In this document: in pieces, positions 18,730 to 44,700 of the stretch
Position numbering within the stretch: the stretch's first letter is position 1
How the letters are laid out: each line of letters begins with the position of its first letter
IMG/VR virus record: IMGVR_UViG_3300035660_000002
Location: 69,463-133,462 of that record
Strand: one strand, 5' to 3'
Length of the DNA: 64,000 nt
Source: a virus
Translations under genes and position numbers: made by a program
Notes under the pieces: generated by a model
What the model was told of the DNA's origin: nothing
What the model saw: the letters and a program-made list of their open reading frames with translations, nothing else
Database searches by the model: none

Positions 18730-19011
18730 TTAGGTCTTGTTTTTCAATTCACCAGTAACCATCATCAAATAAAGTATATCTTGTTGAGCCTTTGCGGCTC
18801 TATCGGTAAGCGTTCCTATCTTTCCCTGCAAATACGCAATTTTGTCTGTGCTCTCGTCTACTACCTTTTCTATCATATCAATTCCACTTTTGATCTTCGA
18901 TATGCCTTTTTCTATTTCAGCAATATGCTTCTCGATCCTGTCTATTCTTTGATTGATACGCCGTACCATTTCCAGCTCGACCAGCATCAATACGATGAGT
19001 ATGATCAACAT
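18730..19011 (-). CDS. Membrane-anchored coiled-coil protein, 93 aa
   Basis: Hydrophobic N-terminus followed by heptad repeats. Confidence 0.55.
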   Translation of the reverse strand: MLIILIVLMLVELEMVRRINQRIDRIEKHIAEIEKGISKIKSGIDMIEKVVDESTDKIAYLQGKIGTLTDRAAKAQQDILYLMMVTGELKNKT

Positions 19012-19166
19012 TTTTTACACGTTCCCGATGCATCGACCATGTCTCTCATCGGGCAGTCTGCTGTCGCTTTCAGAGTGAACTGGCCTCTTATAGCACATTT
19101 ACCTCTCTTCTTACAGAAGTTCTGCCAGTCGCACACTGTTGTGTCTACTTTCGCTTCGCACGCCAT
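19005..19166 (-). CDS. 53-aa Cys-rich protein (not in ORF track)
   Basis: Manual translation MACEAKVDTTVCDWQNFCKKRGKCAIRGQFTLKATADCPMRDMVDASGTCKKC (7 Cys); RBS GGAGGTG. Confidence 0.6.
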   Translation of the reverse strand: MACEAKVDTTVCDWQNFCKKRGKCAIRGQFTLKATADCPMRDMVDASGTCKKC

Positions 19167-19188
19167 ACGCACCTCCCTTGGTCATAGG

Positions 19189-20106: not shown

Positions 20107-20600
20107 ATGCTCACTTCCTTTTTTAGTATTGCCACGCAGTCCTGTCCCTTCCAAAATATATTAATCTCTTTAAGCTTCTTGGTTCTCTTCACAAACAGGA
20201 ACCTCATTCCGTCCGGGTAGAACCTCCAGCAGTCCACCGGGAACTTATGCTCACACCAAGCACATGGCGCTATGATGCACATGATGCCCCCCAGCTTGAG
20301 TATACGTGTGGCTTCGTCTGCCCATGCATAAATGTCCTCTACATGTTCTAAGACTTGCCCGGACACTACTACATCGTACACTTCGTCAGCTATAGGATAG
20401 TGATACATATCCTTGGTGACGATATCCACATTCTTGCCTACAGATGTATCCAACCCCTCATATATCCATAGAGGTTTGTCAAACAGCTTTCGGTACGATC
20501 CTCCCATATCCATCGCACCTATGTCTAGTATCCTTAGGTACTTTTCTGGATTTAGAGTGGCTACAAATTCAGTCATTCGTTCAATGGACGTCTGATGCAT
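20103..20600 (-). CDS. Class I SAM-dependent methyltransferase (Methyltransf_11-like)
   Basis: ILDIGA motif I; YDVVVSGQVLEHV; LKLGGIMCIIAP; FPVDCWRFYPDGM. Confidence 0.85.
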   Translation of the reverse strand: MHQTSIERMTEFVATLNPEKYLRILDIGAMDMGGSYRKLFDKPLWIYEGLDTSVGKNVDIVTKDMYHYPIADEVYDVVVSGQVLEHVEDIYAWADEATRILKLGGIMCIIAPCAWCEHKFPVDCWRFYPDGMRFLFVKRTKKLKEINIFWKGQDCVAILKKEVSI

Positions 20601-28738: not shown

Positions 28739-29062
28739 TTAAGACGAATATTGCGCGTTCTTTAGATTGAACCATCCTTTGGCATTGGCCCCCGGTTGAC
28801 CTATGCCTATAAATATATAATACTTTGTGGTGTCGATAGCATACCAGTGCTGACCCGCTATAGGATTTGCAGGAAACTGATCTGGAGTCTCGGTTCCAGA
28901 GTTAGATCGTAGCCTGCTTACCTCAACACCTGCATCTGTAGTTTTCTCCTGTATCGTATCTGTGTATGTTGTTCTTGGATGATTAACTTTGATGCTTCCT
29001 ACTGTGATGATCTCGTCTTCGCATGCCCAGTTTATGATCTTGGCTATAAATTTCTTTATCAT
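28739..29062 (-). CDS. Small virion-type protein, 107 aa; paralog of 38711-38914
   Basis: ATGA overlap at 29059-29062; C-term YYIFIGIGQPGANAKGWFNLKNAQYSS. Confidence 0.65.
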   Translation of the reverse strand: MIKKFIAKIINWACEDEIITVGSIKVNHPRTTYTDTIQEKTTDAGVEVSRLRSNSGTETPDQFPANPIAGQHWYAIDTTKYYIFIGIGQPGANAKGWFNLKNAQYSS

Positions 29063-31146
29063 TTTATCTCCTCCACCGCAAATTTGAATTTCTTTCCATC
29101 GGGGGATATAAGGATAATCCCGTTCGGACCATCCCAGTCTTCCTTTATTACCCAGTCGTTCATCATCTTGATATCGCCTGTATGTATATTCACACAGTAA
29201 ATATCCGCCCATCTTATGGCGGTGTCACCAAGCTTGCCCGAGTTGTCCCCTCCATTCGGATTGATGTTGACTGCTGTCAATGTGTCTGTCCCGGGTATGT
29301 AAGTGAATGTATTCTCGCCTCCGAATGCGGTGCCGCCGCTATTGTATTGAACATAAGTGTCGGCTCCGCCCGGAGGAGTTACTACGGTAGCCCAAGCTAA
29401 CACTGCGGATCCATTCGTAGTCAGAGCCTGCCCTGTTGTGCCGTCAGCGACCGGCAAAGTATAAGCTGTGTCAGCTGTCTGCGATGCCGAGGGGGTCAAG
29501 GATACAAAACGGTCTGTACCTCCATTCTCGGAATACAACTTGAGAGACCCCGACAGCGTATTTTTACCAAGGAGCAACTGCTGCGTTCCAGTCGTAAATG
29601 TAAAGCCCGCATCTGCTCCAAAAGCGCCTGAATTATTAAACTGCACTTGCGTGTCCGACCCGGCTACACCAACAGATCCTCCTGCTACCCATGACATAAC
29701 ACCGCCTGTGGTAGACTGTAGAAAGCCGCTACTGCCTACCGGCATAGCTGTCGGCAGTGTGTAGGTAGCAGTCGCGCTCTGTGTACCTGCCGTTAACTCT
29801 GTATAATATGCGTTATTCCCCGCACTCCATAGTTTCATCTCCCCTGCAATGTTGGGTGTGGCGGGAGTCTCGTCTTTACCTAGCTCTATAGCATTTACAC
29901 ACTGGAAATACACAGTCGTAGGCGTAGTTGCGCCTCTACCTGTTACAGACTGTAATGTAGACGTGTCTGCTATTGTAGTTATCCCAACCCCTGGAGTTAC
30001 CGATATGTCCGTTCCGGCAGTCAATACTTTCTCGTTAGGCAACGATCCCGACACACTCGATACCACAAATTCGGGAGACGCCGGAGCCACATCTACACCG
30101 ATCCCCATACCACGCCAATTATGAAAGTACCCCACTGTCGTTGTTCCTGCTATCAGTAGAGGTTTATTGATGTATCCTACAGTTACCGGAGCTGTCGCTG
30201 TCAAAGCTCCGGCAGTTGCTCCACTCAAGAAGTGAACAGCTCCTGGAGTAAGTCCTACAAGTCCTGAAACGTTTCCTTCTACTGCTAACCAGAAGTTATC
30301 CGGGTCCACAATAATGGCTACAATGCCCACAACTTCTGCGTTTGTTTCGGTATCTGCTTTCGCTTTAACGAAAAGACTTGTACCGGCATCCCATCGTAAA
30401 ACGTCCCCAATAGCAAAACCATGTAACGTTTGTGCGACAAGTTTGTAAACTGTTGAGAATGGAACAGTAGTTGCAGGATTCGCCCACTCCATTGCAGTGC
30501 CATTCCACCTGATGTAGTAGTTCGTTAGGGCGCTGTTGTTCATAGCCAACTTAGGTTCTGTGACACTATCATCTGCCAACTGGGCTGTATCCACCCCCAG
30601 AGCCTTGATTCGTAAAGTATCCGTATTAGTCTCTAAAGTTGTTCCATCAACATTAACCGTAAGAGCATTGGTGCCCCCCGCAAGAGAAAGACCGTCCCCA
30701 GCAGTATCTGCATTGAGCTTCAGTGCTGTTATCCCGCTATCCTTGACTCGTAGTGTGTCAGTATTGATCTCTATAGTAGAATCATCGACGTTGACGTAAA
30801 GATTAAGTCTCTCATCTCCTCCCGGAACCAGAGTCGCTTTCGACAACCCATCTCCTGCCAGTAGTTTGGTGTTTAGGTACCCCGAGGTCGTGTCTGCTAC
30901 GGTAACTCTCACATATTTATCACCTCCGCTGGCTATAAGAGCCCATGCGGCGCCTGTCCATTGATATAAGGAATCTGTGTCTCTGACGAGATGCATATCC
31001 CCCACTTGATTTCCGATAGCAGGAAGAGAGGCATAGGTTGCCACAGGAGATCTCCAGTGTTTATCCGCCATGCCTGCCTGTTCCGCAAGACACAGGCTTG
31101 TCATAAAACTCGTCAACATTACGAAAATTAGAGCAATTCTTCTCAT
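29059..31146 (-). CDS. Fibre-like protein with signal peptide, 695 aa
   Basis: Signal MRRIALIFVMLTSFMTSLCLA; HWRSPVATYASLP..GN.VGD module; DTQVQFNNSGAFG repeats; C-term LG....RWADIY motif. Confidence 0.7.
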   Translation of the reverse strand: MRRIALIFVMLTSFMTSLCLAEQAGMADKHWRSPVATYASLPAIGNQVGDMHLVRDTDSLYQWTGAAWALIASGGDKYVRVTVADTTSGYLNTKLLAGDGLSKATLVPGGDERLNLYVNVDDSTIEINTDTLRVKDSGITALKLNADTAGDGLSLAGGTNALTVNVDGTTLETNTDTLRIKALGVDTAQLADDSVTEPKLAMNNSALTNYYIRWNGTAMEWANPATTVPFSTVYKLVAQTLHGFAIGDVLRWDAGTSLFVKAKADTETNAEVVGIVAIIVDPDNFWLAVEGNVSGLVGLTPGAVHFLSGATAGALTATAPVTVGYINKPLLIAGTTTVGYFHNWRGMGIGVDVAPASPEFVVSSVSGSLPNEKVLTAGTDISVTPGVGITTIADTSTLQSVTGRGATTPTTVYFQCVNAIELGKDETPATPNIAGEMKLWSAGNNAYYTELTAGTQSATATYTLPTAMPVGSSGFLQSTTGGVMSWVAGGSVGVAGSDTQVQFNNSGAFGADAGFTFTTGTQQLLLGKNTLSGSLKLYSENGGTDRFVSLTPSASQTADTAYTLPVADGTTGQALTTNGSAVLAWATVVTPPGGADTYVQYNSGGTAFGGENTFTYIPGTDTLTAVNINPNGGDNSGKLGDTAIRWADIYCVNIHTGDIKMMNDWVIKEDWDGPNGIILISPDGKKFKFAVEEIK

Positions 31147-32102
31147 TTTAATACCTCCGATGTATGAACATCTCTCTTGCCCTGTACCATCTTTCTTATC
31201 GGACAAATACAGTTAATTCTATTGTCCTCAAATTCTTCTGACCCTATGATTTCCTCCAGAGAGTAACAGTGCAGATCGCCCATGATCTTGCTATAAGGTA
31301 AGCAACAAGAGAGCACAGTCCCGTTCTCCTGTATTTTCAGTATACCCACAGTATTATGACAATATTTGCTTGGAGCAATCTTCCTCCATAACTTATATAT
31401 AGCATGAAAGGTGCCAGGTATCTGTAGTAATGGCCTGTGGTAGAACCCTAAGAAAGCACTCACATCTGCGTTATGCTTCACCAAGAATATCCTATCCAGA
31501 TACTCAGTATCCTTTGGTGGCTTATCAAGTTTATATGGCTTCTCAAGATTCTTGAGGAACTGGAACTCCTGGAACTTCACGGCATCTACGCCCAGCTCAT
31601 CAGCTAAGTTCATAATTGCTTCCATATTGTAGAAGTTATAGTTGCTGACAGTAGTTTGGATAGTCACCCTCTTGCCACAGCTCTTGAAATACTTGATGTT
31701 GTCTATAATACAGTCAAAGAAACAGTTGGGTCTCAGGAACTCCTGGAGATCCTTGTTGGCTGCGTCCAGGGATATCACAAACTCAACATTCATATCTTTG
31801 AGTATCTCACGGTGCCTATCAGATATATCTGAGAAGTTACTGGTAATCAGAGTCTTGAAATGATACTTCTTTATGTCCTCGAAGACCGTCTCAATACGGG
31901 AATACATAAGTACTTCACCACCACCAGCCAAGTCCAAGATGTCAATGGTTGGGAATACCTTATCACGAATACCGATATAGGTCACTTCGTCCAGCTCGAA
32001 CCTGCTGTGTTGCTCTTGATTAGAGTGCCAGCACATAAGACATTTGCCGGGACAACGATTGGTCAGACCCAACATCAGCGTTTTAATTTCCTTTAACTGC
32101 AT
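31143..32102 (-). CDS. Radical SAM protein with SPASM/Twitch-like C-terminus
   Basis: CPGKCLMC; LAGGGEVL; ISLDAA; YCHN...IQENGTVLSCC...MGDL...CIC. Confidence 0.9.
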   Translation of the reverse strand: MQLKEIKTLMLGLTNRCPGKCLMCWHSNQEQHSRFELDEVTYIGIRDKVFPTIDILDLAGGGEVLMYSRIETVFEDIKKYHFKTLITSNFSDISDRHREILKDMNVEFVISLDAANKDLQEFLRPNCFFDCIIDNIKYFKSCGKRVTIQTTVSNYNFYNMEAIMNLADELGVDAVKFQEFQFLKNLEKPYKLDKPPKDTEYLDRIFLVKHNADVSAFLGFYHRPLLQIPGTFHAIYKLWRKIAPSKYCHNTVGILKIQENGTVLSCCLPYSKIMGDLHCYSLEEIIGSEEFEDNRINCICPIRKMVQGKRDVHTSEVLK

Positions 32103-33081
32103 GAGTTTCCCTCTTTGATATCTTGCACGAACATACACGACGTATTCTGTCGTACCGGTCGTTATCCATTATCTGCTCCAGAGTATTCTCACTCAGGTTG
32201 CCTATCGCCTTACACTCGTGACAGGAACAGAAATAAATCTGCCCATCAACATCCACCTTTATAAAGCTACGGGATATGGGACAGTATTCTTTACGCCTCA
32301 TCATAGCCCAGAGGTTTGCTATCTTTACCTTAGTTCCTGCTCCTAAGGCGGTAAGAGGATCCATGACACAGTAGACTGCTCTCATTGGGCTGATAAGAGC
32401 AGAGGTTCTTCGGTGGTAGTCCAACCATAGATCATAGTTAATCTTGTAGTGACCATGAACTAAATTATGGATATATTCCCTATCCACCGGGGGAGCCTCA
32501 AACTTAAGGGGCCTGTCGAGGCACTCCAAGTACTGGGCTCCATGAAATATGATACCCTCTACCCCCAGCTTCTCGCCTAGCTTCATCATCCGTTGCATAT
32601 CATAGAAGTTATAGTTGCTTATGGTCATACGTATCGTGACCCTCTTCTTGTTCTTCACAAAGAAGGAGATATTCTCGAGTACCTTTTCATAGTTACATTG
32701 TGGCCTCATAAACTCTTGTAGTGCCTTGGTAGAACCATCAAGAGAGACTATGAAACGTACGTCTGCGCTCACCATAAACTCACGCTGTCTATTGGTGATA
32801 ACAGAGAAGTTGCTCTCAATTGTAGTCTTAAAGTCATACTTCTTCATATCGTAAAGAACCTCATCTATATACTTACAGGCAAAGGCCTCTCCCCCAGACA
32901 GTAGGTCTAAAATATTAAGTTTGGGAAACACCTTGTTCCTCAGCTCTTCATATATCCTATGATCCAAATCGATTATGCTTGGTAAAGTCTCAGGTTCATT
33001 GGAATGCCAACAGGTGCGACAGTGACTATTGCACCTATTGGTTAGACCTAGCTTGAGATATCTGACTGAATCCACCTTCAT
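32083..33081 (-). CDS. Radical SAM protein with SPASM/Twitch-like C-terminus (paralog of the adjacent gene)
   Basis: CNSHCRTC; LSGGEAF; VSLDGS; YCP...VDVDGQIYFCSC...IGNL...CSC. Confidence 0.9.
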   Translation of the reverse strand: MKVDSVRYLKLGLTNRCNSHCRTCWHSNEPETLPSIIDLDHRIYEELRNKVFPKLNILDLLSGGEAFACKYIDEVLYDMKKYDFKTTIESNFSVITNRQREFMVSADVRFIVSLDGSTKALQEFMRPQCNYEKVLENISFFVKNKKRVTIRMTISNYNFYDMQRMMKLGEKLGVEGIIFHGAQYLECLDRPLKFEAPPVDREYIHNLVHGHYKINYDLWLDYHRRTSALISPMRAVYCVMDPLTALGAGTKVKIANLWAMMRRKEYCPISRSFIKVDVDGQIYFCSCHECKAIGNLSENTLEQIMDNDRYDRIRRVCSCKISKRETHAVKGN

Positions 33082-34463
33082 ACCATCACCGCTTGTATTA
33101 AATCTCTATATTTTATAACACCATGACGATCAACCAAATGGCTACAGTATTTCTGTACTATTTCATGCAACTCCTCTACTCTAAACTCCTCGGAAGCCAA
33201 GGGATATAGAACGGGATGTAGCTCCTCAAGTGTCCAGTCTTTGCCTAAGAACTCACGCGCATACTCAAACTCCTGAGTCTTTGGCACGGGAGTAAACATT
33301 AGAACCACAGGTAACGCCCCCGCGTCCTCGACTATCTGTATAGTCTCACAGGCTTCCTCATATGTTTGTCCTAAACAACCTATCATAACGAAGGAGTTCA
33401 GGACCAAGCTCTTTTTAAGAGACCCTATTTTTGTCTTCCAAAACTCTGCGTCTAAGCGCCTATGCCACCTTGTTAACAGCTTCTCAGATGAACTCTCAAT
33501 CGGCACTCCAATACTACGAAATCCTGCTTCATGCATCAGCTCTAATATCTCGGTGGTCAGAGGCTGCGGATCTAGCCCCCCATATGCTTTCAGGTAGAAC
33601 TTTAGATTCCTCTTCACGATACCCTCAAGGATTACCTTGAAGTGCTTCTCATAGTTTACAAGGAAATTGGAATCCAGGAACTCTATCTCTTTAATTCCAT
33701 TAGCATAATAATACTCGAGCTCATCCAATACATCCATAGGATCGCGCCGTATATGCTCATGTCCCTCTACCACAGGAACCGCACAATACCCACAACTATT
33801 GGGACATCCTAGTGCTGTAAGTATCCCCACCAAACAGGGGTGCTCTTCATATAATGAAAGGTCTATGCGAGTAAAATCATCCTCGCACCCTTTTGACTTG
33901 GTTACTACTTTATCCGCACCCAACTTCTGGGCGTGCTCTGTGCATAGTGTAGGATATAGACCACCTATCCATATTTCTGCCGAGGAGAAGTTCTCCCTTG
34001 TGGCATCTATGGTTTCTTTAACCCCCTCCCATAGGTATGTGAATGCTTGGGATATGACCACCACATCTGGCTGAAATTCCAACAATTTCTTCACATATGA
34101 GGATAACGGTCGGCCTATACGCACAAGTTGACGGGTAAAGTGCTCCTTCTCCCAATTTCCACACTTTCTCTCCCCCATGGGAGTGAGTATCTTTTCACCC
34201 TTATAGTATAACTCCCCGTCCACCAACTCCCATATATTCTTACAGTTCCAGATTGACTCTCTTCCTTTATTGCACTCCTCAAAGGTCTTGTAGTTATCAC
34301 CCCGGCAGCGATACCCAGGAAGATCAGGTCTTATGTTAAACACAGCAACCTCGTGCCCCTGCTTCTTGTACATAGAAGCTATACGGTAGGTGGGAATCAT
34401 AGTTGCTCTACTTACCATCTCGGTATAGCCAAACTCTGCGGGGTAAACAACTAATATTTTCAT
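33078..34463 (-). CDS. B12-binding radical SAM protein (class B methyltransferase-like)
   Basis: N-terminal cobalamin-binding domain (PDVVVIS...IWIGGLYPT); GCPNSCGYC; FLDSNF; IGVPIESSS; FVMIGCLGQT. Confidence 0.88.
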   Translation of the reverse strand: MKILVVYPAEFGYTEMVSRATMIPTYRIASMYKKQGHEVAVFNIRPDLPGYRCRGDNYKTFEECNKGRESIWNCKNIWELVDGELYYKGEKILTPMGERKCGNWEKEHFTRQLVRIGRPLSSYVKKLLEFQPDVVVISQAFTYLWEGVKETIDATRENFSSAEIWIGGLYPTLCTEHAQKLGADKVVTKSKGCEDDFTRIDLSLYEEHPCLVGILTALGCPNSCGYCAVPVVEGHEHIRRDPMDVLDELEYYYANGIKEIEFLDSNFLVNYEKHFKVILEGIVKRNLKFYLKAYGGLDPQPLTTEILELMHEAGFRSIGVPIESSSEKLLTRWHRRLDAEFWKTKIGSLKKSLVLNSFVMIGCLGQTYEEACETIQIVEDAGALPVVLMFTPVPKTQEFEYAREFLGKDWTLEELHPVLYPLASEEFRVEELHEIVQKYCSHLVDRHGVIKYRDLIQAVMV

Positions 34464-35167
34464 TTCACTCTTCTCTCTATGGCCCCACTTACATCAGTAA
34501 TATACTTAAACAATATCTCCCTATCAATCTCACAGTAGTCAACCTTGATATAGAAATACAGCTTCATTCTGTTAAACATATAATCGGTATAACTCACATT
34601 GTAGGCTACCTTGAAGGGCCCTACTGGAAAATTATACTTTGGGTATACTTCAGTGAACGCTTCGTCCAATAGTTTAAGTATCTTAGGTTCAATTCCTCTC
34701 TTGTATACCCTGAAGCTCACATACAGACATCTCTGACCGTGACCATCGCATGAAGCGAATGTTCTAACGTGCTTAATCCTATTAACAGCATCGACGAGAG
34801 GCTTTACGCCTCGGTCGATACTGAACGTGTGCCTAAAGGGACCAGCGTGGCACTCTCCTGATACAGAGTTTCTCTTTGGAACCTTGATATCAGGATACTT
34901 GGCCATCAGGTCTTCGTCACTCTGTTCCAAGAAATACTTTGGTTTTATCATTGCTATCATCTTGGGAACATCAAGAGAGCTTATGGCATCAGCGAACACT
35001 ACATCTCCCTTACGATCTATCCTCTTCAATAGTTTAGATTCAACGAAAGAGATATCACCGACTTTGAACAGAAATTCATTGAACTCTCTGCTCATAGTCT
35101 TGACATCTATCATATGTTCCTTATCCTCAATGAAAAGGATTAGGTTGAACCAAACTTGGTACTTCAT
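34460..35167 (-). CDS. Protein with TYW3-like ID..(V/I)..LV...N......T..SC.GH domain
   Basis: SIDRGVKPLVDAVNRIKHVRTFASCDGH motif; N-terminal 100 aa unassigned. Confidence 0.5.
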   Translation of the reverse strand: MKYQVWFNLILFIEDKEHMIDVKTMSREFNEFLFKVGDISFVESKLLKRIDRKGDVVFADAISSLDVPKMIAMIKPKYFLEQSDEDLMAKYPDIKVPKRNSVSGECHAGPFRHTFSIDRGVKPLVDAVNRIKHVRTFASCDGHGQRCLYVSFRVYKRGIEPKILKLLDEAFTEVYPKYNFPVGPFKVAYNVSYTDYMFNRMKLYFYIKVDYCEIDREILFKYITDVSGAIERRVK

Positions 35168-36510
35168 TTAGACGTACTTTCCTTCTCCTCTTTTGAAACC
35201 GTTATTTCCGCAATTTTCTTCAGTAACGGAATGATTATCTCATTCTGGTGCCTGATCTCCGTTAACGTCTTGAGTAGCACATTCATACCCTGAATCATTA
35301 GATCTTCTGCATCTACCCCTAGCACCTTCGCACCCTTGCTCATGACTATCCCCCTTCTTTTGCTTGTTGGCGATTTGTAAACTGAAAATGCACTCAATGT
35401 GTTATTACACTCCTCAAAGAGCCTGTCAGAATATTTATTCACGAACTCTTGATTCATCCTGCAAAACTCGCAATACCCTGTTGTGGGTTTTGCCGCAGCT
35501 TTTCCCTCTAAGTACTTGTTTGTGGCAAAGCACCTAACACAGGTATACGAGGTGCATTTCATGCAATCCTTGTTAGAGAAGTGCACTGCCTTTATCTCCT
35601 TTAGTTTATCGTTATTAGGATCTACCCAACTCTGTACGTCTCCTAATTTATAGTCAAAGTGTTTACGGTACGCTATAAAACGATGACAGGGATATATCTC
35701 ACCATCTACAGTTACCCCTACCATCTGATCTCCCGCATGACACCCTTTGTAGTCACCCGGACTATAACAACCTACTCTCCTCTCATTCGCTTCAATAAGC
35801 GGAGAATTGAGGAGACTCAAGAACTTAACCGGTGTTGTCTTTAACTGCTCGAAGAACAATTTGTATATTTTCTCAAGTTGCTCCTTGGCTTTGTCCAAAA
35901 CTGGATTCCAATCCTCCTCTATAATTGGCGTCATTTGAACTACATCAGCCATATCAGAAAGAGCGACATAATCATCATAGAATTTGTCCACCCGAGAGGG
36001 TAACAGGGTTTCTCTCACCTGTATGTCGGGAATTATACTGCGAAACTTTTTTATATTACCGGCAATAAGCTTAAAAGAATCCTGACCTCCGATCATAGGT
36101 CTACTTTGATTGTGTGATTCTTCACAACCATCCACACTTATCTGAAGCTTTAACCTATGCCCCATCGAGGCTTTATACCTACCAAGGAATTCGTGAATAT
36201 CCTCATTCCACACAGTACCATTCGATAGAATATATATTGAGAATACTATCCCTTTCTTGCGCAGACCCTCTACGTATTCAAAGGTGTTCTTCATTACCTC
36301 CCAATTTAGGAAGGGTTCACCACCAAAGAAATTGATATTGAAGTGCGAACCAAGATTGGCCTGATGTCCTGGCTCATAATGCGCCACCATCTGGTCTATA
36401 AGCTTCTCCATAGTTCCCCATTCCATATCACCTGTTCGGTCTTGTTCGTAACAATAAGAGCAATTCAGGTTGCACCTATTTGTTATCAGAACGTACACAC
36501 TACTGATCAT
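35164..36510 (-). CDS. Radical SAM/SPASM peptide-maturase-like enzyme (anSME/ranthipeptide maturase clade)
   Basis: CNLNCSYC; FFGGEPFLN; QISVDG; full SPASM CHAG...VDGEIYPCHRF...CMKC...CVRC...YCEFC. Confidence 0.9.
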   Translation of the reverse strand: MISSVYVLITNRCNLNCSYCYEQDRTGDMEWGTMEKLIDQMVAHYEPGHQANLGSHFNINFFGGEPFLNWEVMKNTFEYVEGLRKKGIVFSIYILSNGTVWNEDIHEFLGRYKASMGHRLKLQISVDGCEESHNQSRPMIGGQDSFKLIAGNIKKFRSIIPDIQVRETLLPSRVDKFYDDYVALSDMADVVQMTPIIEEDWNPVLDKAKEQLEKIYKLFFEQLKTTPVKFLSLLNSPLIEANERRVGCYSPGDYKGCHAGDQMVGVTVDGEIYPCHRFIAYRKHFDYKLGDVQSWVDPNNDKLKEIKAVHFSNKDCMKCTSYTCVRCFATNKYLEGKAAAKPTTGYCEFCRMNQEFVNKYSDRLFEECNNTLSAFSVYKSPTSKRRGIVMSKGAKVLGVDAEDLMIQGMNVLLKTLTEIRHQNEIIIPLLKKIAEITVSKEEKESTSK

Positions 36511-36532
36511 GACTGTTACCTCCCCTTTTTAA

Positions 36533-37054
36533 TCATAGCTTTAACATGCTTAGATCTGGATATAGGTTTTGCACATCCGGCATCTCCCGCATAGTTGCAA
36601 GTATCTTAAGCCCTCTAGCAGCCTTGTCTGGATAAAACTCAACCCTTTTCTCTACCCTAGCTTTTTTAAACCATTGAACATCCTCGACATCGTCACAAAG
36701 AATCATTCCTCCCCTACCTATATAGATTGACCCTCTTGGCTGTGCAAATGATATACAGAAGTATGTGCCTGGAATATACATATCCTTCTTGAATCGCAAA
36801 GCACAATCATAAATAGGGTACGGTTTCAATTGATAGCAGCCTGACCACTCTCTATCTTCAAATGCTACCGAACCTCCTGCATCCATAATAGCGTAGCAAA
36901 TTTTCACTGTGGTCTTTTTTGGTATAACTACCTTCCCAACACTTAAATGTGAGCAGCACAAACCAATAGCACTTGCTCCTGTGTTGGTAGCTACACCATA
37001 CTTGGCACCAGCATACTTAGCTGTTATATTCTCAAATTCTTCTACTAAATTCAT
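36533..37054 (-). CDS. Short DegT/DnrJ/EryC1/StrS aminotransferase-like protein
   Basis: FENITAKYAGAKYGVATNTGASAIGL...IYDCALRF...CISF...IGRGGMIL; only 173 aa; the usual PLP lysine after SF is not evident. Confidence 0.7.
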   Translation of the reverse strand: MNLVEEFENITAKYAGAKYGVATNTGASAIGLCCSHLSVGKVVIPKKTTVKICYAIMDAGGSVAFEDREWSGCYQLKPYPIYDCALRFKKDMYIPGTYFCISFAQPRGSIYIGRGGMILCDDVEDVQWFKKARVEKRVEFYPDKAARGLKILATMREMPDVQNLYPDLSMLKL

Positions 37055-38034
37055 TACTTACCCTTTAATACGTTTATGTTCAATGGATTCTTGAAGTAAT
37101 TTAACTGAGTAGCAAATGGTCTCGTCTTGCCTTCGAGCACTTTTTTATCGGCTTCTGCTAATGGTATAATGTTATTAAATGCCACCCAATCCTCCTCCAA
37201 CTGAGGTAAACCATTACACCCCAATAATACCACATCTGGGTTATATGACGCGACATAGTTCAGACAATCCTGATATATCTGAAAAACCTCTAAGGCACCT
37301 TCCTCCTTCTTATAACCACACTTCGGACACACCCATTTAGCAGTAACCGGCTTAGTCAAGTACGCTACCCTGTCAAGTGGTGTTCTTACACAAGTTGGGC
37401 ACTCTGGATGTCCTGAATCTAGAGACTTGCCAAACTTTTTGGCGAGTCCATCCGTAATATTCCTGAAATATGGTAAAACCTGATCCTGACTTTTCCCTCT
37501 CATGAAAACCTGCATGGCAATCAGCTTCGTTTTTGTCCTATCAATATTAGGTAACACCTCCATTATAAATGATGATTGATGCTTGTCCGCAATATTCATC
37601 GTCATCATTGCATAATCGAATGTATACACCTTCAGAACGTCCCTAAGTAAAAATGGGTCTCTGTTACAGGTAATCCCCACATACTTTACCTTTCCACTCT
37701 TCTTGGCGGCATCCAACGCTGGTAGAATTTTTATATCGTACGGCGTTGCTAAATCGTGTAAATTCCAGATGTCTACGTAATCTGTCCGCAGCTCTCTAAG
37801 ACTACGCTCCAGCAAAGCCAATGCCTGAGCTGGATCCCTGTAGTGGGATTTAGTCGAAATAACAACCTCGTTTCTGGGTATACCAGACAATTTTAATGCT
37901 TCACCAAATAAACCCTCATTCCTTCCATTGCTATACAGAGGTGCTGTGTCAAAAAACCGGACACCCAATTCAAATGCCCTCTTCATAACAGGTGGATTAT
38001 TTCCAGCTTTTTCAAGTCCAAGTCCAAATATCAT
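37054..38034 (-). CDS. Aldo/keto reductase with an inserted CxxC...CxxC zinc-ribbon
   Basis: GVRFFDTAPLYSNGRNE; VISTK; LRTDYVDIWNLH; GKVKYVGIT; insert CPTC...CPKCG. Confidence 0.85.
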   Translation of the reverse strand: MIFGLGLEKAGNNPPVMKRAFELGVRFFDTAPLYSNGRNEGLFGEALKLSGIPRNEVVISTKSHYRDPAQALALLERSLRELRTDYVDIWNLHDLATPYDIKILPALDAAKKSGKVKYVGITCNRDPFLLRDVLKVYTFDYAMMTMNIADKHQSSFIMEVLPNIDRTKTKLIAMQVFMRGKSQDQVLPYFRNITDGLAKKFGKSLDSGHPECPTCVRTPLDRVAYLTKPVTAKWVCPKCGYKKEEGALEVFQIYQDCLNYVASYNPDVVLLGCNGLPQLEEDWVAFNNIIPLAEADKKVLEGKTRPFATQLNYFKNPLNINVLKGK

Positions 38035-38046
38035 TTTATCCTCCTC

Positions 38047-38670
38047 TTATCCGCAAGTCGCACAGTCGCATGTGCATGTGCACTCACAAGTGCAACCACA
38101 CGTTCCCGTACAAGTGCATGTGCATGTGCACTCACAATTGCATGTCACGCTGTGAGTATGCAACGTTAGATGCTGTAAGAAAGTCCTTAACTGCTGCCAC
38201 GCACTTGCCGATTCCAGAGTTGAGTCCACCACTACGGGATCGACTACGAACGGCAACGCCTGCGTATAGTAAGTTGACCACTCTGCCGTTACCCCCTCGT
38301 TACTAAAAGCGGGAAAATTGTGCCTATGACCACCAGTTCCTACACCTTCAAAATCTTTGATAAACCCTATCAACTCATTAAGATGTGCTACACGAATTTT
38401 TGTTGCCTCTGCTATTATGACGGGATCAGTAAATGCTATCACTATGTTAGGATTTTCCTGACCTGAATTTACCGACGATGCGGGATATACCCTTGGCCCA
38501 GCGGTGTGCTTATGTAAGTGTGCATCAATTAGAACAGTTCTTAACTGATCGGCATGCTCTTTTTTAAGAGGCATATCGTCAGCACCCAAGGGGTCGTTAG
38601 TCCACGAATACGTCAGAGGACTCCCATCTGCTTTCTTTGGTGTTGTCGTAGTATAAGTTGCTGTTGGCAT
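38047..38670 (-). CDS. Virion-type protein with a C-terminal (Cys-X)n tail; putative radical-SAM substrate
   Basis: Three helix+HxH units (HKH, HRH, HTH); last 31 aa CNCECTCTCTCTGTCGCTCECTCTCDCATCG contain 14 Cys. Confidence 0.7.
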   Translation of the reverse strand: MPTATYTTTTPKKADGSPLTYSWTNDPLGADDMPLKKEHADQLRTVLIDAHLHKHTAGPRVYPASSVNSGQENPNIVIAFTDPVIIAEATKIRVAHLNELIGFIKDFEGVGTGGHRHNFPAFSNEGVTAEWSTYYTQALPFVVDPVVVDSTLESASAWQQLRTFLQHLTLHTHSVTCNCECTCTCTCTGTCGCTCECTCTCDCATCG

Positions 38671-38710: not shown

Positions 38711-38914
38711 TTACGTTGCGTACTGTGCATTCTTTAGATTAAACCACCCATTCGCGTCGCATCCCGGCTCACCTATTCCTATGAAGATGTACATCTTTTT
38801 ATCCGTCGTGTTGTAAAATATCTCGTTCGAAAGAGGCTTCACTGGAAATGATGCGTCGCAGTATGGACGTGTTCTGAATCCATACGCCTTCTTCTGTCCG
38901 TATAATCCGTGCAT
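38711..38914 (-). CDS. Small virion-type protein, 67 aa; paralog of 28739-29062
   Basis: MYIFIGIGEPGCDANGWFNLKNAQYAT; RBS AAGGAGG. Confidence 0.65.
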   Translation of the reverse strand: MHGLYGQKKAYGFRTRPYCDASFPVKPLSNEIFYNTTDKKMYIFIGIGEPGCDANGWFNLKNAQYAT

Positions 38915-39317: not shown

Positions 39318-40151
39318 TTAAGCTCCCATCATGAGAAATGCTGCTTCTATGCCTTGAATTCCTGCTCCTGCGCCCCCAAGGTTGATCCAAGGCCTCGCGT
39401 CTGTGATCAAGGCCTCTGTGATTACTGTCGTGGTCGTGCCGATCAGAACTTCAGCCAGCACTATCTTTCCTGTATGCACTGCAGGCACTGGTGATGGATC
39501 CGGCAGTCCTGCTGTTATTTGCAGGTTTCCAAGGCTATCGACCCACAGTATGTCGATACGAGGCTGTGCGCCTGCCGCTCCAAATGCAGGACTTTCCTGC
39601 GCCGGAACGTACAGTCTCGAGTCCCCATAGCTCACCCATCCGTTGCTTACGAACACTTTCATGGATGGAGTAGCTGTGGGCGCCACCTTCAAAAAGTCCC
39701 CCATGTTCGAAGGCACTGTTCTGGGCACAACGCTGCCTGATCCATAATCGATACTTATAAGGTTGCTCCACGAGTACACGCCAAAGCCAACTACGATGTC
39801 ATTAGGCAGAATGCAATTTGGAGGAGTGCCAGCAAGAGCAACAGACATTATATCCATGAACCAGTTTGTCAGCGGCTGCCATGTCCACCGAAGAATCACA
39901 TAGGGAGTGGCCGATGTGATCGCGATGTCTGCATCAACAGTTGTCGCTATCCGCGCCTGCTGCGTTCCGTCAGATATCATGCACACCAGAGGCTTCACTC
40001 GTATCGTAGTATTGTTTACGATCTCAAGCTCTCCCCCCTTGTAGATACCTACCGGGATGATATCCTCATTATGTTTGTCAAACTCATCTGAGTTCAGAGG
40101 GTCGTAATATGCCCACTGAATATCCTGTGTACCCCAATTTTGCTGGCCCAT
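39318..40151 (-). CDS. Tail fibre/baseplate-associated protein, 277 aa
   Basis: APTATPSMKVFVSNG...PRIDILWVD..G...I.AG...P.P..IVLAEV...I....ITDARP module typical of fibre N-termini. Confidence 0.6.
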   Translation of the reverse strand: MGQQNWGTQDIQWAYYDPLNSDEFDKHNEDIIPVGIYKGGELEIVNNTTIRVKPLVCMISDGTQQARIATTVDADIAITSATPYVILRWTWQPLTNWFMDIMSVALAGTPPNCILPNDIVVGFGVYSWSNLISIDYGSGSVVPRTVPSNMGDFLKVAPTATPSMKVFVSNGWVSYGDSRLYVPAQESPAFGAAGAQPRIDILWVDSLGNLQITAGLPDPSPVPAVHTGKIVLAEVLIGTTTTVITEALITDARPWINLGGAGAGIQGIEAAFLMMGA

Positions 40152-40162: not shown

Positions 40163-42250
40163 TTATTGTTTCCTGAGTACATCCACGGTTATCTCATTTA
40201 TAGGCCCTGCTGGTTTGTCATACGAAGGAAAGAATGACAGCACCATCAAGCGTCCTGTGCCTGAATGGTATAGGCCTAGTTCACTCACATTTGTAAGCAC
40301 CTGACTTGTCGGCACTTTGATGTGGAATGTGATCTTCTCGTTTGTGATCTCATAAGATTCCACAGTGCCCACATACGGCACAGGATCCTCCAAATCCGTC
40401 ATGGCCGGGTCCGGTGTTCCTCCCTTGTTGCCTGTGCCTATCTTTACTATCGTGATGTCTTGTATCTTGGTGTTATCGCTCTGATCCATGAACAGTGCCA
40501 GCACGTCCGATTTGAACAGCACTTGCTGCCCTGCTCCCGGAGGAGCCGCGAACACTACAATTACTCTGCCTGTGACATAATCTATCGATCCTCCTACTAC
40601 TTCCCCTCCCGGACTTATCCATCCTCCCGTTCCGTTGTCGTGCGCGACTTCAAGATTGTCCAGCCATATGTGCACCTTATCGGCCCGTACCCTGGCCAGA
40701 GTTCCCTGATGCCACATGCCTGTCTCAGTGACCACCCAAGTAGCGGTAATGTAGAACGTATCTAATTTTACATAGGTGACCCAAGCTGTCCCGTTCCATC
40801 TGACTGTATTGTAACTTGCGTCTATGTACACAATGTCATTAGTCGAGGGAGCATACTCTGTAAATGCGGATCCTGTTCCTGTGTATATTCTATTTATCGT
40901 CCAGCCATTAGCTGTCGCCGTCGATAGGTATCTCACGCCAAGTGTCGGCGCGGGCAACACGGGCGTTGGATTGTAGACACTATCGACCTTAGCAAGCTGG
41001 TTAACCGTATCTGCGATTTTTGTAATTACATAATTCCCGTTATAGTTAGTGGTTCCTGTTATCCTGATCGTGCTGCCGTTTGCAAGCCCATTGTTAGGAC
41101 TTGTAACCCGAACCTTGCCAGGCACCACCGAACCGTAATCCGAAAACGCAGTAATATCCCCAGCCAATTGCATCAATTGAGGATTTGATGGTATTATGTC
41201 TGCTGAGTCAAACGTGTCCTCTACTATATCACCCGTTCCTATCAGCACATCCACTCCCGGCTGATCGAGGTACTTATCATCCAGCGCAGGCATGTCAAAG
41301 TACAGTGTCTCAAGTTCCCAGAAATTTGTTATGCATGTCTTAACTTGACTATCCGGTATTATGAATGGCAGGTAGTCCTCTTTGCACATGCAGTATAGAT
41401 TCAAGTAGAAATGGGGCACGGTGTTGACCGGAGTAAACTGCTCCATTATCTCTACTATTGATGGCCACAGTTCTGCGGCGAACAGCTTGTTGTATGTTCC
41501 CTGAAACATTATGAGCTTTGTCAGGTTTATTACAATGTCAAAGTGAGGAGATTTAAACCCTCCGCCGCCGTCAAATCTAAGATTTTCGTCAAAGTGCCAT
41601 CCGTCGTCGCTTCGCAGACTTGCCTCGGGGCTGAACCCCGGCACTACACCGCTATGCCAGTGAGGAATAAATCTTGTAAATGTTTGGTAGTCTCTTGTCC
41701 ATAGATCATACACCTGCACATTCAGACCTATTGTAAAGAATGCATAGTTGAGGACTTCATAGGTACCTTTGATCTTATAAATATCGACTGCCATTTTTAT
41801 CTGGCGCCGCAGTTCATCTGCAGTTGCGTATGTCTTGTTCTTAAGTCTGCATCCGATCAATGCTGCCAAATGACCTAGATACTTTCTAGGGCATGTGTCT
41901 ACATCTATCAAAAGTCCAAGGGTATCTATCCTGCAGGAAATTTCGTTTACTACACGCGATACTGAATCGAGATAATCTTTCATAGCCGGAGCGTTATGGA
42001 ACTTCTTCGGCATCATCTTAAGCAGATCCCAGTTGCTTGGGCACACTATTGTCTCAGCTTCAACAGTAGGCATAAAGTCGATGTGAACAGGCAACTCCAT
42101 CGTCTCAAGGTACATGGCATTGAATAACCCCATGAGCCATCGGCCCTCTTCCGTTATGGGCCTCAACCCCTGTCTGCGGCCTGTTTCCAGCACTCGGACA
42201 TTAGCATCGGGTCCGAATACTGCGCGGCCTGTCTCAGTGAATATCTGCAT
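40163..42250 (-). CDS. Baseplate wedge/tail protein I-like (P2 gpI-type) with accessory domains, 695 aa
   Basis: DVDTCPRKYLGHLAALIG...RRQIKMAVDIYKIKGTYEVL; DUF2793-like insert; C-term IVKIGTG...VSELGLY. Confidence 0.75.
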   Translation of the reverse strand: MQIFTETGRAVFGPDANVRVLETGRRQGLRPITEEGRWLMGLFNAMYLETMELPVHIDFMPTVEAETIVCPSNWDLLKMMPKKFHNAPAMKDYLDSVSRVVNEISCRIDTLGLLIDVDTCPRKYLGHLAALIGCRLKNKTYATADELRRQIKMAVDIYKIKGTYEVLNYAFFTIGLNVQVYDLWTRDYQTFTRFIPHWHSGVVPGFSPEASLRSDDGWHFDENLRFDGGGGFKSPHFDIVINLTKLIMFQGTYNKLFAAELWPSIVEIMEQFTPVNTVPHFYLNLYCMCKEDYLPFIIPDSQVKTCITNFWELETLYFDMPALDDKYLDQPGVDVLIGTGDIVEDTFDSADIIPSNPQLMQLAGDITAFSDYGSVVPGKVRVTSPNNGLANGSTIRITGTTNYNGNYVITKIADTVNQLAKVDSVYNPTPVLPAPTLGVRYLSTATANGWTINRIYTGTGSAFTEYAPSTNDIVYIDASYNTVRWNGTAWVTYVKLDTFYITATWVVTETGMWHQGTLARVRADKVHIWLDNLEVAHDNGTGGWISPGGEVVGGSIDYVTGRVIVVFAAPPGAGQQVLFKSDVLALFMDQSDNTKIQDITIVKIGTGNKGGTPDPAMTDLEDPVPYVGTVESYEITNEKITFHIKVPTSQVLTNVSELGLYHSGTGRLMVLSFFPSYDKPAGPINEITVDVLRKQ

Positions 42251-42253
42251 CGA

Positions 42254-42547
42254 CTATGTGTCCTTTGTTATAATACCATCCGCACCTATTCTTTGAGAAC
42301 TCACTGCCCTGTTGTATATCCGCAGGTACTGTGTTGATGCAAGATGTATATACATATTTGTCAGGAAATTCTTGCCCGCCTCTTCAAAAAAGGCCAGCTC
42401 ATTTCCTCCTCCGTCCACTAATTTCAGCTCTATATCGTTTTCATGAAATATGTTATGTATCACATATTCCCTACCTGCGATTGGAGCTACTTCCAGGTAG
42501 TTGGCTGCGTTCACATTCGCCATTGCGGTATAGACGTCTCCGACCAT
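42254..42547 (-). CDS. Putative virion protein, 97 aa
   Basis: ORF within the baseplate operon; RBS AAGGAGG. Confidence 0.55.
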   Translation of the reverse strand: MVGDVYTAMANVNAANYLEVAPIAGREYVIHNIFHENDIELKLVDGGGNELAFFEEAGKNFLTNMYIHLASTQYLRIYNRAVSSQRIGADGIITKDT

Positions 42548-42561
42548 GTAATCCTCCTTAC

Positions 42562-42984
42562 TTACGTTATAGTTATTCTGGGAGTTATCCTAACCTTGTC
42601 GCCGTAATACAGCAAATCTATCGGCGCCGAGAACAGATTCATTGCTATCAGCTTTCCCGCCGCGTCTCCCGCCGGGTTAGGGGATGTCGTTATAAAACAT
42701 CCGTATATAGTTCCAAGTGACTCTAGTATCACTTCAAACTCTTCATCCGGGTACACTGACACTTCTCCATACACATTCCAATTGGCCGGAGACAAAGGCA
42801 GTCTTATGTAGTCAGATGCTACTGGTTCCACGATCGATGCAAGTGTCGCATTGTTCAAATTTCCAGAAGGTAAGTTGTTTGTAAAGAGCCCTAAGTATAA
42901 AACAGGATGCTGCGACTTATTCTGGAGAAATATCTCTGCCACGTCTTGTGACCCTTGTACAACCCATTCGCCTATAGCTGGCAT
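42562..42984 (-). CDS. Phage tail-fibre attachment-type protein, 140 aa
   Basis: LYLGLFTN...YIRLPL...W...F...GTIYGCFI...GKLIA...I pattern. Confidence 0.6.
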   Translation of the reverse strand: MPAIGEWVVQGSQDVAEIFLQNKSQHPVLYLGLFTNNLPSGNLNNATLASIVEPVASDYIRLPLSPANWNVYGEVSVYPDEEFEVILESLGTIYGCFITTSPNPAGDAAGKLIAMNLFSAPIDLLYYGDKVRITPRITIT

Positions 42985-42996
42985 ATTTCAAGTCTC

Positions 42997-44700
42997 CTAT
43001 AATATCGTAAAGTTTTTCTCTATAAGTCTGGCTATCTGTTTTGTTGTAACCACAATGTCCCCCAGTTGATTCTGTTGATAGTAAGCCCTTATAACCTCCC
43101 CTGTGGCCGGAGGCGTTGCGATGGTGACAGATATGGCCCCTGTGCTATATACAATCGATCCTGTGACACCTGTGCCCGAGATAGTGCCTAATCCGTTATC
43201 TACCGCTATAAGCGCTGCGTCTTTATAGATCTTAACTGTATTTGGTGTTACCGGCAGAAGAAATAGCGGAACACCCAATTTATTGAACACTGTATCCCCG
43301 CCATCCCCCACTCCAAGTATCTCTCTGTGTCGTAATATTATATGTGTGTAGTCTACACCAACCACGTTCTCTATGGCATGAACCACATCCGATCCTCTAA
43401 TCGAAACTCCAAGCTTTGCTCCGGTACCGAGAGCAAACACGGCATCCAGTGCGGCACCTGCATTTGTCACAATCTGGCTGTCTTGGTAGGTATCCAACAC
43501 TTTTAGCTCCACATCTATCATCGTCTCGACAATATCCGCATTTTTGAAGTCAAGCCATACTGTAAGTTGCTCCTTGTTTATAAGTGCAGCCTCTATTGCT
43601 ATCTTGAATGCGTTGTCAGGATTAGTCCAGTTCTGCAAGAGGCACACGATCCACACCTTGTTAAACATAGTTATATTTGGAGGATATTCATCGCGTTCGC
43701 CCCACACGTATGCCGTCTGAACGCCGGGCATGTTCTCTATTATCGTGATATAGTCCTCTCTTGTTATGGCCCTATCCCCTGTCGAGAATACCAGTGGTGC
43801 CTCTCTTCGTATCTCTTCTGTATCCTCTGCGTCGTCACCTCCAAGGAATAGTGACGAGTTTTCCACGCTGATAAGACTTGTCACATCGTTCGGTGTCGGC
43901 GTGGCCGCATCAAATATGGTTCCCTCTATCGTATTTATCTGATACAGTGCATATACATTTCCGTCAGCACCGTCCGTCTCTATGAATTCTATATCAATTG
44001 TGGAGCTGTTAGGTGGAATTTTTCCAAATATGCCGTTTCCGAATATCAGATTGACCGTGTCATCCAACGCCGTCTCTTGCATGAAGTGCAAACTTTCCGA
44101 GTTGGATCCCACAAAGTTGTCCACCATTGTCCATTCTGCGTTGTCGATAACTACTCTGATCGTCTTGGCCAGTAGTCCCGAATCCTCGACATTGACATTA
44201 GAAATAGGTATAACCATGTCGGCAGTGCCGTCGGATGTCGAAGATTGAGTCCTAAGTTGTCCTTGTATGCCTTCTACTATAACGTTCAGTTGCCCTGCTC
44301 GCAATACTGCAAACTTCTTTACTATGAATTTCATGTTGGCTGCAGTCTTGACCACCAGTCCTTTCGGGAGATAAATATCATATGCGTATATGCTTCCGGA
44401 TAGTATCCTGAATTTAAGGTTTCCCTCAGAGGATGTCTTCCTCTTGGGACGGTAGTTAAGCAGACTCACCAGCCTCACCACCGATGATCTGTTCTGCGCT
44501 GTGTCTATGTACGACTCCTGTGCCCGTCTCTCCAGATAGTACATCATCATTTCTGTTACAAAGCTGAACAGCTCTATCAGCAAGTTGCCTGTGCCTGATT
44601 CGACATCGAGATCCTTCCACGAATCCTTCGTCTTCAGGATGCTGCGAAGCTGCTTTACCAGCGCGTCGTAGTTATACTGAGAAAAATCAAGTCTTGCCAT
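42997..44700 (-). CDS. Baseplate wedge subunit (T4 gp6 / baseplate J-like)
   Basis: LDFSQYNYDALVKQL...SGTGNLLIELFS...RAQESYIDTAQNRSSV; LIFGNGIFGKIP; GGDDAEDTEEIR..APL...DRAITREDY. Confidence 0.9.
   Translation of the reverse strand: MARLDFSQYNYDALVKQLRSILKTKDSWKDLDVESGTGNLLIELFSFVTEMMMYYLERRAQESYIDTAQNRSSVVRLVSLLNYRPKRKTSSEGNLKFRILSGSIYAYDIYLPKGLVVKTAANMKFIVKKFAVLRAGQLNVIVEGIQGQLRTQSSTSDGTADMVIPISNVNVEDSGLLAKTIRVVIDNAEWTMVDNFVGSNSESLHFMQETALDDTVNLIFGNGIFGKIPPNSSTIDIEFIETDGADGNVYALYQINTIEGTIFDAATPTPNDVTSLISVENSSLFLGGDDAEDTEEIRREAPLVFSTGDRAITREDYITIIENMPGVQTAYVWGERDEYPPNITMFNKVWIVCLLQNWTNPDNAFKIAIEAALINKEQLTVWLDFKNADIVETMIDVELKVLDTYQDSQIVTNAGAALDAVFALGTGAKLGVSIRGSDVVHAIENVVGVDYTHIILRHREILGVGDGGDTVFNKLGVPLFLLPVTPNTVKIYKDAALIAVDNGLGTISGTGVTGSIVYSTGAISVTIATPPATGEVIRAYYQQNQLGDIVVTTKQIARLIEKNFTIL

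Follow-up and report, generated by a model that had tools for sequence, protein, structure and literature searches.

CrpC, a radical S-adenosylmethionine (radical-SAM) enzyme with a SPASM domain, cross-links the large Cys-rich protein CrpA in Methanococcus voltae, where ranthionine-type links are formed in C-terminal repeats with the motif C-X-X-Q/D (Dieter et al., 2026; PMC13692751). A comparable pairing is described here from phage DNA, namely, a 64,000-nucleotide stretch (the window) spanning positions 69,463 to 133,462 of the virus record IMGVR_UViG_3300035660_000002, in which a 207-aa protein ending in a (Cys-X)n tail is encoded next to radical-SAM enzymes inside a tail module. The record, which is complete at 133,462 bp and has terminal repeats, is described as coming from a sediment phage, and the window covers its second half. 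The phage very probably modifies this tail-module protein of its own chemically, as judged from gene content, because the Cys-tailed protein, a SPASM radical-SAM enzyme, and a B12-type radical-SAM enzyme recur together in every related phage examined. The likeness to CrpC/CrpA lies in a SPASM enzyme encoded beside a Cys-rich protein, the substrate having an N-terminal recognition part and C-terminal cysteines. However, CrpC/CrpA is cellular and archaeal, has 17-residue repeats against a cysteine period of two in the phage, possesses an N-terminal recognition element (RRE) of the systems for peptides made on the ribosome and modified after translation (RiPPs) in CrpC, and has no B12 partner.

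The PapB–PapA (freyrasin) and CteB–CteA pairs are the best matches of the phage SPASM enzyme, with Cys-rich cores that offer Asp, Glu, or Thr as acceptors and with a full SPASM domain in the maturase. They act on short secreted peptides that have leaders, whereas the phage enzyme lacks a CteB-type RRE, carries a C-terminal extension, and has an obligate B12-type partner. The CXXX-repeat system (TIGR04115) likewise joins cysteine-repeat targets to SPASM maturases, and CXXX-repeat proteins stand beside SPASM enzymes on phage contigs too (L027-L044 and L049), but its cysteine period is four instead of two, its enzyme is 26-27% identical, and it has neither an HxH domain nor a B12 enzyme. Class B radical-SAM methyltransferases such as PoyC, Mmp10, and the MCR glutamine C-methyltransferase, which methylate ribosomal peptides and proteins, resemble the second phage enzyme in having a CX3CX2C radical-SAM core and, probably, an N-terminal Rossmann-like domain; the phage enzyme reaches no curated family, and its reaction is a prediction. 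Examples of radical-SAM thioether and methylation chemistry come from secreted peptides, a subunit of quinohemoprotein amine dehydrogenase that QhpD cross-links, and, as of 2026, archaeal CrpA.

The phage system thus appears to work like ranthipeptide/SCIFF maturation and CrpC/CrpA, yet it falls outside the curated families tested. It is set apart by a period-2 Cys tail on a domain with three HxH motifs, the missing RRE, the obligate B12-type partner, and the phage tail context. A literature search on radical-SAM, thioether, ranthipeptide, CXXX-repeat, SPASM, and Cys-rich systems in phages found no description of such a system, and to our knowledge, no phage particle protein is reported to be matured by radical-SAM thioether or methylation chemistry. 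A preliminary description of the window, made from its letters alone, had stated that no characterized pathway of this composition is known; this holds for the literature searched, although thioether cross-linking of a Cys-rich protein by a SPASM radical-SAM enzyme has been published in 2026 (PMC13692751).

All genes of the window lie on the minus strand, including the eight open reading frames of the cassette at 31143-38670, which form one tightly packed, coupled run exactly as had been reported. The first of them encodes the Cys-tailed protein (P0001; 38047..38670), the C-terminus of which reads CNCECTCTCTCTGTCGCTCECTCTCDCATCG. Translation bears out 14 Cys in the last 31 aa (residues 177-207; 38050..38142), which stand in near-perfect Cys-X register and constitute the proposed modification site; the X residues are mostly T, E, D, N, or G. 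The rest of the protein is composed of three tandem repeats, each with WTDDP, a spacer, KxxHxxELR in a helix, an HxH motif, and then approximately 27 aa. The three HxH motifs (H53/H55, H115/H117, and H171/H173) each follow a predicted helix, and in the third repeat, the Cys tail stands in place of the ~27-aa segment.

This architecture is shared by all relatives. An initial homologue search with a word index gave eight homologues at 31-59% identity, all with three HxH motifs and a Cys-X tail, and pattern scans then yielded 13 viral, four genome, and 36 metagenome loci. After the removal of identical copies, these amount to 42 distinct homologous genes (31-64% identity) from viral contigs, metagenomes, and Omnitrophota genomes, and the Cys tail is kept in all of them; homologues P0002-P0021 and loci L002-L095 retain the three HxH motifs together with the tail throughout. 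Across 23 aligned homologues, H173 is kept in at least 90%, and the other five His do not vary. The tail always starts just past the third HxH with C-x-C-E-C or C-C-E-C-E-C, continues in (T/Q/E/D/N-C) units, and contains 13-16 Cys, with sub-groups that have conserved endings of their own. The TGT/TGC and ACN codons vary freely among homologues while the peptide pattern is constant; therefore, selection acts on the amino-acid pattern and not on a DNA repeat. An origin of the tail by chance, by a DNA repeat, or by slippage is ruled out by the conservation and codon data.

The N-terminal domain has a wider distribution than the tail. A profile of this domain without the tail matched 2193 clusters among 1.84 billion representatives, and the 21 full-length relatives recovered in this way all have three HxH motifs and end in a Cys-rich tail (21/21). 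Most of the other matches are three "HxxELR" repeats, without HxH and without Cys, at the end of larger proteins, which are often non-phage and contain beta-propeller-like, FN3, TSP3, or RHS parts; in another, smaller set, the HxxELR repeats are followed by a different CxCxC tail. Judged from these matches, a terminal module that is widespread but unnamed stands alone in the N-terminal domain, and it is the combination of HxH motifs and Cys tail that defines the family. The threefold "WTDP...K..H..ELR" module (proteins P0023-P0155), which has no Pfam model, ends approximately 2,000 protein clusters, many of them large and secreted-looking.

The linkage of the tail gene to its neighbors was counted by tblastn with the window proteins as queries on every locus retrieved. 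Where 2.6 kb or more of sequence is available downstream, 26 of 26 distinct Cys-tail loci encode a SPASM enzyme as well as a B12-type enzyme, with 29-45% and 31-41% identity to the respective window enzymes, and the usual order is tail gene, SPASM gene, and B12 gene. Among the 35 loci that extend 600 nt or more downstream, 32 have the SPASM gene next after the tail gene, mostly within approximately 150 nt, although the gap reaches 848 nt in locus L080, where a GT61 gene lies between; in the three exceptions, the next gene encodes an aldo/keto reductase (AKR) as in the window (one locus) or the B12-type enzyme (two loci). The reverse search from the SPASM enzyme is equally consistent, since a Cys-tail gene is present in each of the 11 viral loci with an identity of 34% or above, among them a 114-kb contig (L015) found by this search with the order SPASM gene, tail gene, and B12 gene. 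Co-occurrence of Cys-tail genes with radical-SAM genes across viral databases had been proposed as a check, and radical-SAM genes without Cys-tail genes in relatives as a counter-case; for the core pair, the former was found and none of the latter was seen. More distant SPASM homologues (26-27% identity) adjoin other cysteine-repeat proteins. As far as gene linkage can tell, the conserved core is three genes: those for the Cys-tailed protein, the SPASM enzyme, and the B12-type enzyme.

The trio occurs in differing tail contexts, i.e., a myovirus-like baseplate-J/P2-I module in the window, a lambda-like module in L014, and a tail-tip-fibre module in L080. The lambda-like modules comprise a tape measure protein, tail protein L, and a central fibre J of 1222 aa, while in L080, the trio comes after a tail-tip-fibre protein and before a collagen-repeat fibre. 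Genome matches were found in Omnitrophota. Among them is the complete genome of Ca. Velamenicoccus archaeovorus LiM, a predatory ultramicrobacterium, in which the trio lies in a lambda-like tail block (L058; NZ_CP019384.1 1902730-1919215). Since this bacterium dominates a long-kept enrichment culture for which public metaproteomes exist (PXD025008, cited in PMC12583861), its prophage copy is a possible laboratory handle. In four metatranscriptome runs from two studies, RNA of this prophage was represented by a few 100%-identical contigs of 151-264 nt at a depth of 2.7-6.5, which cover the SPASM and B12 genes and downstream sequence and leave the tail gene without any; as DNA carry-over is possible, they are not counted as expression. 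Pfam models of the HK97 capsid and the TerL ATPase gave nothing over the cut-off in the relatives' records, which is uninformative given the many other families that exist.

Several related loci have features of their own. In L014, a record rated 98% complete, a type I restriction-modification system (an HsdR-like helicase and an HsdM/S fusion; 16242-20548) lies approximately 3 kb downstream of the cassette. In L027-L044, L040, and L049, many of them from IMG sample 3300045988, two SPASM radical-SAM genes are accompanied by long CXXX (or CXX) repeat proteins approximately 3 kb downstream. In L025/L026, a "CICNCEFCNYC" tail follows an ELR-type helix beside two SPASM genes, without a B12 enzyme.

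The first core enzyme is a 448-aa radical-SAM/SPASM maturase (35164..36510), assigned by NCBIfam and PDB matches, Cys motifs, and synteny. Its radical-SAM motif, CX3CX2C, begins at residue 13 (C13, C17, and C20), and seven SPASM cysteines follow (C257, C275, C316, C319, C324, C327, and C347); all are invariant in eight homologues, and the Pfam SPASM domain is matched with an E-value of 1.6e-5. Among 66 NCBIfam families, the best match is PapB (NF047865; E 5.1e-52, 177.1 bits against a cut-off of 340), the second is the nif11-type maturase, and SCIFF, CXXX-repeat, and CcpM are the other top families, all of them peptide maturases for Cys-rich substrates. The scores against TIGR04115 (CXXX-repeat maturase) and TIGR04463 (CrpC) are 103.8 bits (cut-off 350) and 50.4 bits (cut-off 525), respectively. 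The best PDB match is CteB (5wgg; E 3e-18), of which residues 99-422 are aligned; as the alignment starts at residue 99 of CteB, the N-terminal recognition element of the CteB type is missing. A conserved extension of approximately 100 aa is present at the C-terminus.

The second core enzyme (461 aa; 33078..34463) is a B12-type, class B-like radical-SAM enzyme, recognized by Pfam and NCBIfam, its motif, and synteny. It has an N-terminal Rossmann-like part and an invariant GCPNSCxYC motif (C220, C224, and C227). The earlier label of a B12 radical-SAM enzyme is well founded in its radical-SAM core (57 bits in Pfam) and less so in its cofactor domain, for which the B12-binding model PF02310 gives 28.6 bits against a cut-off of 32.1 in both the window and L014. 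The nearest NCBIfam families are the lipid B12/radical-SAM family and PhpK (lipid and phosphinate methylation), the best at 85.5 bits against a cut-off of 360, and TIGR04014 is among the weak matches.

On the basis of the conserved synteny and the family assignments, the view that the Cys-X-tailed protein is the substrate of the adjacent RiPP-type radical-SAM enzymes is strongly supported. A folded N-terminal domain of three HxH-ended alpha/beta repeats would carry a flexible (Cys-X)n tail, and two dedicated enzymes would modify this tail post-translationally. The SPASM enzyme would abstract a hydrogen from a side-chain carbon of X (Thr, Glu, Gln, Asp, or Asn) and join this carbon to the sulfur of a neighboring Cys, giving a ladder of thioether (ranthionine-type) rings, and the B12-type enzyme would then methylate unactivated carbons of the same tail. 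Each X in the tail has a Cys at i+1, i-1, i+3, and i-3, and the X residues are known thioether acceptors of PapB, NxxcB, CteB, and QhpD. In the window lineage, the products of five further genes may tailor the tail further or act on a sugar that it carries. A thioether ladder with methylation is the best explanation in view of the gene linkage, the affinity to thioether maturases, the predicted disordered and acceptor-rich tail, and the CrpC/CrpA precedent, and we regard the whole, a folded tail-module protein with a tail thioether-linked and methylated by the SPASM/B12 pair, as likely, though well short of assured.

The structure predicted for the Cys-tailed protein is consistent with a flexible substrate on a folded carrier. 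AlphaFold2, run with 23 sequences, gave a compact domain of three alpha/beta repeats with three helices (mean predicted local distance difference test score (pLDDT) of 82; predicted template modelling score of 0.77), in which the tail has a pLDDT of 46-55, as against 77-95 for 10-residue blocks elsewhere; the (Cys-X)n tail is thus modelled as disordered on a confident domain. The preliminary description had spoken of fibre-like units of a helix plus HxH. Three such units are indeed present, but the model is a compact monomer and not a fibre shaft, and none of three fold searches returned a fibre match: Foldseek against PDB and BFVD gave E-values of approximately 1 or worse, and the VIA search gave nothing convincing, with a designed filament as the best hit (Z 7.2), a BARA domain at 5.1, and TssK at 4.2-4.6. 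These poor matches are not taken as a sign of a new fold.

In the fibres and spikes of phages, as in T4 gp37 and P2 gpV, iron is bound by HxH motifs, and on this analogy, the three HxH motifs probably form a metal site. The likeness to the iron sites of the T4 gp37 tip, gp12, and the P2 gpV apex consists in an invariant HxH and in a protein encoded among tail-tip genes. Those sites lie in intertwined trimeric beta-structures, whereas in the phage protein, a single chain contains all three HxH, each preceded by a helix, and is modelled as a monomer.

Several points weigh against the proposed maturation of the tail. For each of the named maturase families in NCBIfam, the SPASM enzyme scores below the curated cut-off, it has no recognizable RRE, and no PqqD-like partner was found; the B12-binding domain of its partner scores under the Pfam cut-off as well. 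It is gene position that suggests a place for the Cys-tailed protein in the virion, and neither PHROGs nor the fold searches returned a structural-protein match for the protein itself. The modification, the type of cross-link, and the methylation are all predictions from sequence, and a tail with alternating Cys might just as well be a metal binder that has no cross-links.

This last point can be extended into a reading of its own, according to which the tail is a metal or Fe-S element, either metallothionein-like or continuing the HxH sites, and the radical-SAM enzymes are linked to it in some other way, by methylation only or with the tail as a supply or store of Fe-S or metal. The three invariant HxH that precede the tail fit such a role in light of the iron-binding HxH of phage fibres and spikes, and alternating Cys on a beta-strand would place all thiols on one face; moreover, the segment of approximately 27 aa whose place the tail takes is modelled partly as beta-strand after the HxH in repeats 1 and 2. 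However, the adjoining enzyme belongs to a Cys-thioether maturase branch, Thr, Glu, Gln, Asp, and Asn are favored at the X positions, and the strict trio synteny across phage types is hard to explain without an enzyme–substrate relation, so that a purely metal-binding tail seems unlikely. Even less probable, to a degree that makes it a marginal candidate, is a released RiPP, in which the 176-aa domain would be a very long leader and the Cys peptide would be cut off to act as a toxin, signal, or metallophore. The rank of the nif11-type maturase, which acts on long-leader precursors, as the second-best NCBIfam match and the leader/core logic of CrpA, which the layout of tail plus maturase fits, are in keeping with it. 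Yet neither a protease nor an exporter belongs to the conserved trio, the module always lies between tail-tip or fibre genes, and the folded three-repeat domain, unlike a leader, is also found at the end of many larger proteins that are not from phages. Cross-linking and methylation of a tethered tail thus remain the preferred account of the core trio.

The preliminary description had tied all the radical-SAM enzymes of the cassette to the Cys tail. This is borne out for the SPASM and B12-type enzymes, which are universally linked to it, but the other five genes, encoding the AKR, a DegT-like protein, a TYW3-like protein, and two twitch radical-SAM enzymes, belong to the window lineage only and are absent in all relatives outside this sub-lineage, the Omnitrophota-type loci, L015, and L080 included. 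Pfam and NCBIfam agree with the labels given earlier to the AKR, the full SPASM enzyme, and the two twitch/SPASM enzymes. The AKR (326 aa; 37054..38034) matches PF00248 at 98 bits against a cut-off of 24, and it follows the Cys-tail gene only in the nearest, short relatives L060 and L090, at 60-64% identity. The DegT-like label is right as to the family, but the 173-aa protein (36533..37054) is a degenerate DegT/DnrJ-like remnant that matches only profile positions 26-92 of 360 (PF01041). By eye, it has "SFAQPRG..GRGG" where the family has its pyridoxal phosphate (PLP) lysine, with Arg instead; given this Arg and the partial profile, aminotransferase activity is unlikely.

The TYW3-like assignment of the 235-aa protein (34460..35167) is moderately supported, with two fold searches placing TYW3 on top and Pfam TYW3 (PF02676) giving 12.1 bits under a cut-off of 27 (E 0.12). 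Its C106, H113, C140, H143, and C147 are conserved. With its predicted model (pLDDT 71), four TYW3-family structures (PH1069, AF_2059, 2dvk, and SSO0622) were among the six best in VIA (Z 6.5-7.3 over ~100 residues at 14-16% identity), and TYW3-family structures were on top in Foldseek (E 6e-3, probability 0.98-0.99); it is reasonable to take the protein, on its model, as TYW3-like and possibly a methyltransferase. The twitch/SPASM radical-SAM enzymes 1 (332 aa; 32083..33081) and 2 (331 aa; 31143..32138) are paralogues at 36% identity with a short SPASM/twitch domain. Close homologues of twitch enzyme 1 exist at 55-64% identity, and the close homologues of the 235-aa protein and the twitch enzyme, taken together, span 55-71%; for a TYW3-like homologue (P0160) and a twitch homologue (P0166), the longest contig listed is 17,090 bp in each case, and the two may share one contig. 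In single-sequence viral scans, no relatives turned up for the Cys-tailed protein, the 235-aa protein, twitch enzyme 1 (also as an alignment), or the AKR.

This accessory set may act on the tail or on sugars. In the latter case, the five lineage-specific enzymes would tailor a sugar or small molecule, possibly put on virion proteins afterward, which is compatible with the proposed role of the core trio and which we consider possible, if on balance doubtful. The sugar role is kept in view because of the GT61 glycosyltransferase between the Cys-tail and SPASM genes of L080 and the glycan cluster with a radical-SAM gene that follows a homologue of the 277-aa protein in L054, in a position corresponding to that of the cassette, and the absence of the five genes in relatives outside the sub-lineage agrees with it. 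The combination of a twitch radical-SAM enzyme with a DegT-type enzyme also recalls aminocyclitol pathways (BtrN/BtrS). However, the accessory genes alternate with those of the core pair within a single coupled run, the DegT-like gene is only a remnant, and neither a nucleotidyl-sugar activating enzyme nor a glycosyltransferase is encoded inside 31143-38670. L080 (2445-7438) is the closest SPASM relative, with 45% identity in the enzyme and 35% in the tail protein, and its tail-tip-fibre gene is preceded by genes for a pentapeptide-repeat protein and a spermidine-synthase-like methyltransferase. The L054 cluster (1623-11443 of the locus; IMGVR_UViG_3300010429_001387, 127.9 kb) consists of ten genes, including those for CST-I/MptE-like, GT2, DXD-type glycosyltransferase, GT7C-like, radical-SAM, GT10 fucosyltransferase-like, TylF-type O-methyltransferase, LicD, and SDR proteins, and it has no Cys-tail gene.

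The cassette sits inside a tail/baseplate block, in agreement with the insertion into a tail module noted earlier. Upstream lie genes for a baseplate J/gp6-like protein (42997..44700) and a P2 gpI-like tail protein (40163..42250), supported by the set of Pfam models PF09684, PF04865, and PF21379 across 40163..44700, and for a 277-aa virion-structural-like protein (39318..40151) with a weak match to the PHROG "virion structural protein" phrog_3398 (E 2.3e-5). By tblastn, one group of relatives has a counterpart of residues 184-254 of the 277-aa protein in the gene that lies immediately upstream of the Cys-tail gene. In the window, this place is taken by a gene for a 67-aa protein (38711..38914), which has a 45-aa C-terminal module (55% identity; FP..P..G..Y..DT.K.YIFIGIG.PG...GWFNLKNAQY) in common with a 157-aa protein encoded downstream of the cassette (28739-29212), and a related stretch stands right after the CXXX-repeat genes of two unrelated phage contigs (L042/L043, ~9760-9915). 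The downstream 715-aa and 1351-aa proteins were assigned to no family, and a sequence search of solved structures matched nothing for them.

The eight open reading frames overlap by 4 nt or are separated by no more than 22 nt at their junctions, with the sole exception of a 56-nt overlap of the last radical-SAM gene (31143..32138) from its listed GTG start into its paralogue. Similarly, the 715-aa frame, when read from its listed TTG start (31206), shares 64 nt with the end of the last radical-SAM gene; the true starts of both genes are probably further downstream than listed. A promoter and terminator scan of the region gave chance level only, and neither the region nor the tail protein had a match in the phage GenBank collection, whether by DNA (distant mode) or by protein.

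A wider picture, which we hold tentatively and rate at slightly under an even chance, is that phages of anaerobes staple and probably methylate a Cys ladder at the tail tip, making a poly-thioether appendage proof against proteases and redox change. The eight-gene version of the window would be hyper-modified by oxidation/reduction, methylation, or glycosylation, and the HxH domain and the ladder together might form a metal-bearing tip for host recognition. If confirmed, this would be a new kind of covalent modification in virion assembly, with RiPP chemistry used in building a virus particle, and it would explain the presence of oxygen-sensitive Fe-S enzymes within the structural operons of phages of strict anaerobes. 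It would also provide a compact, portable SPASM and B12 pair acting on a (Cys-X)n tag tethered to a folded protein, which would be of interest for peptide stapling.

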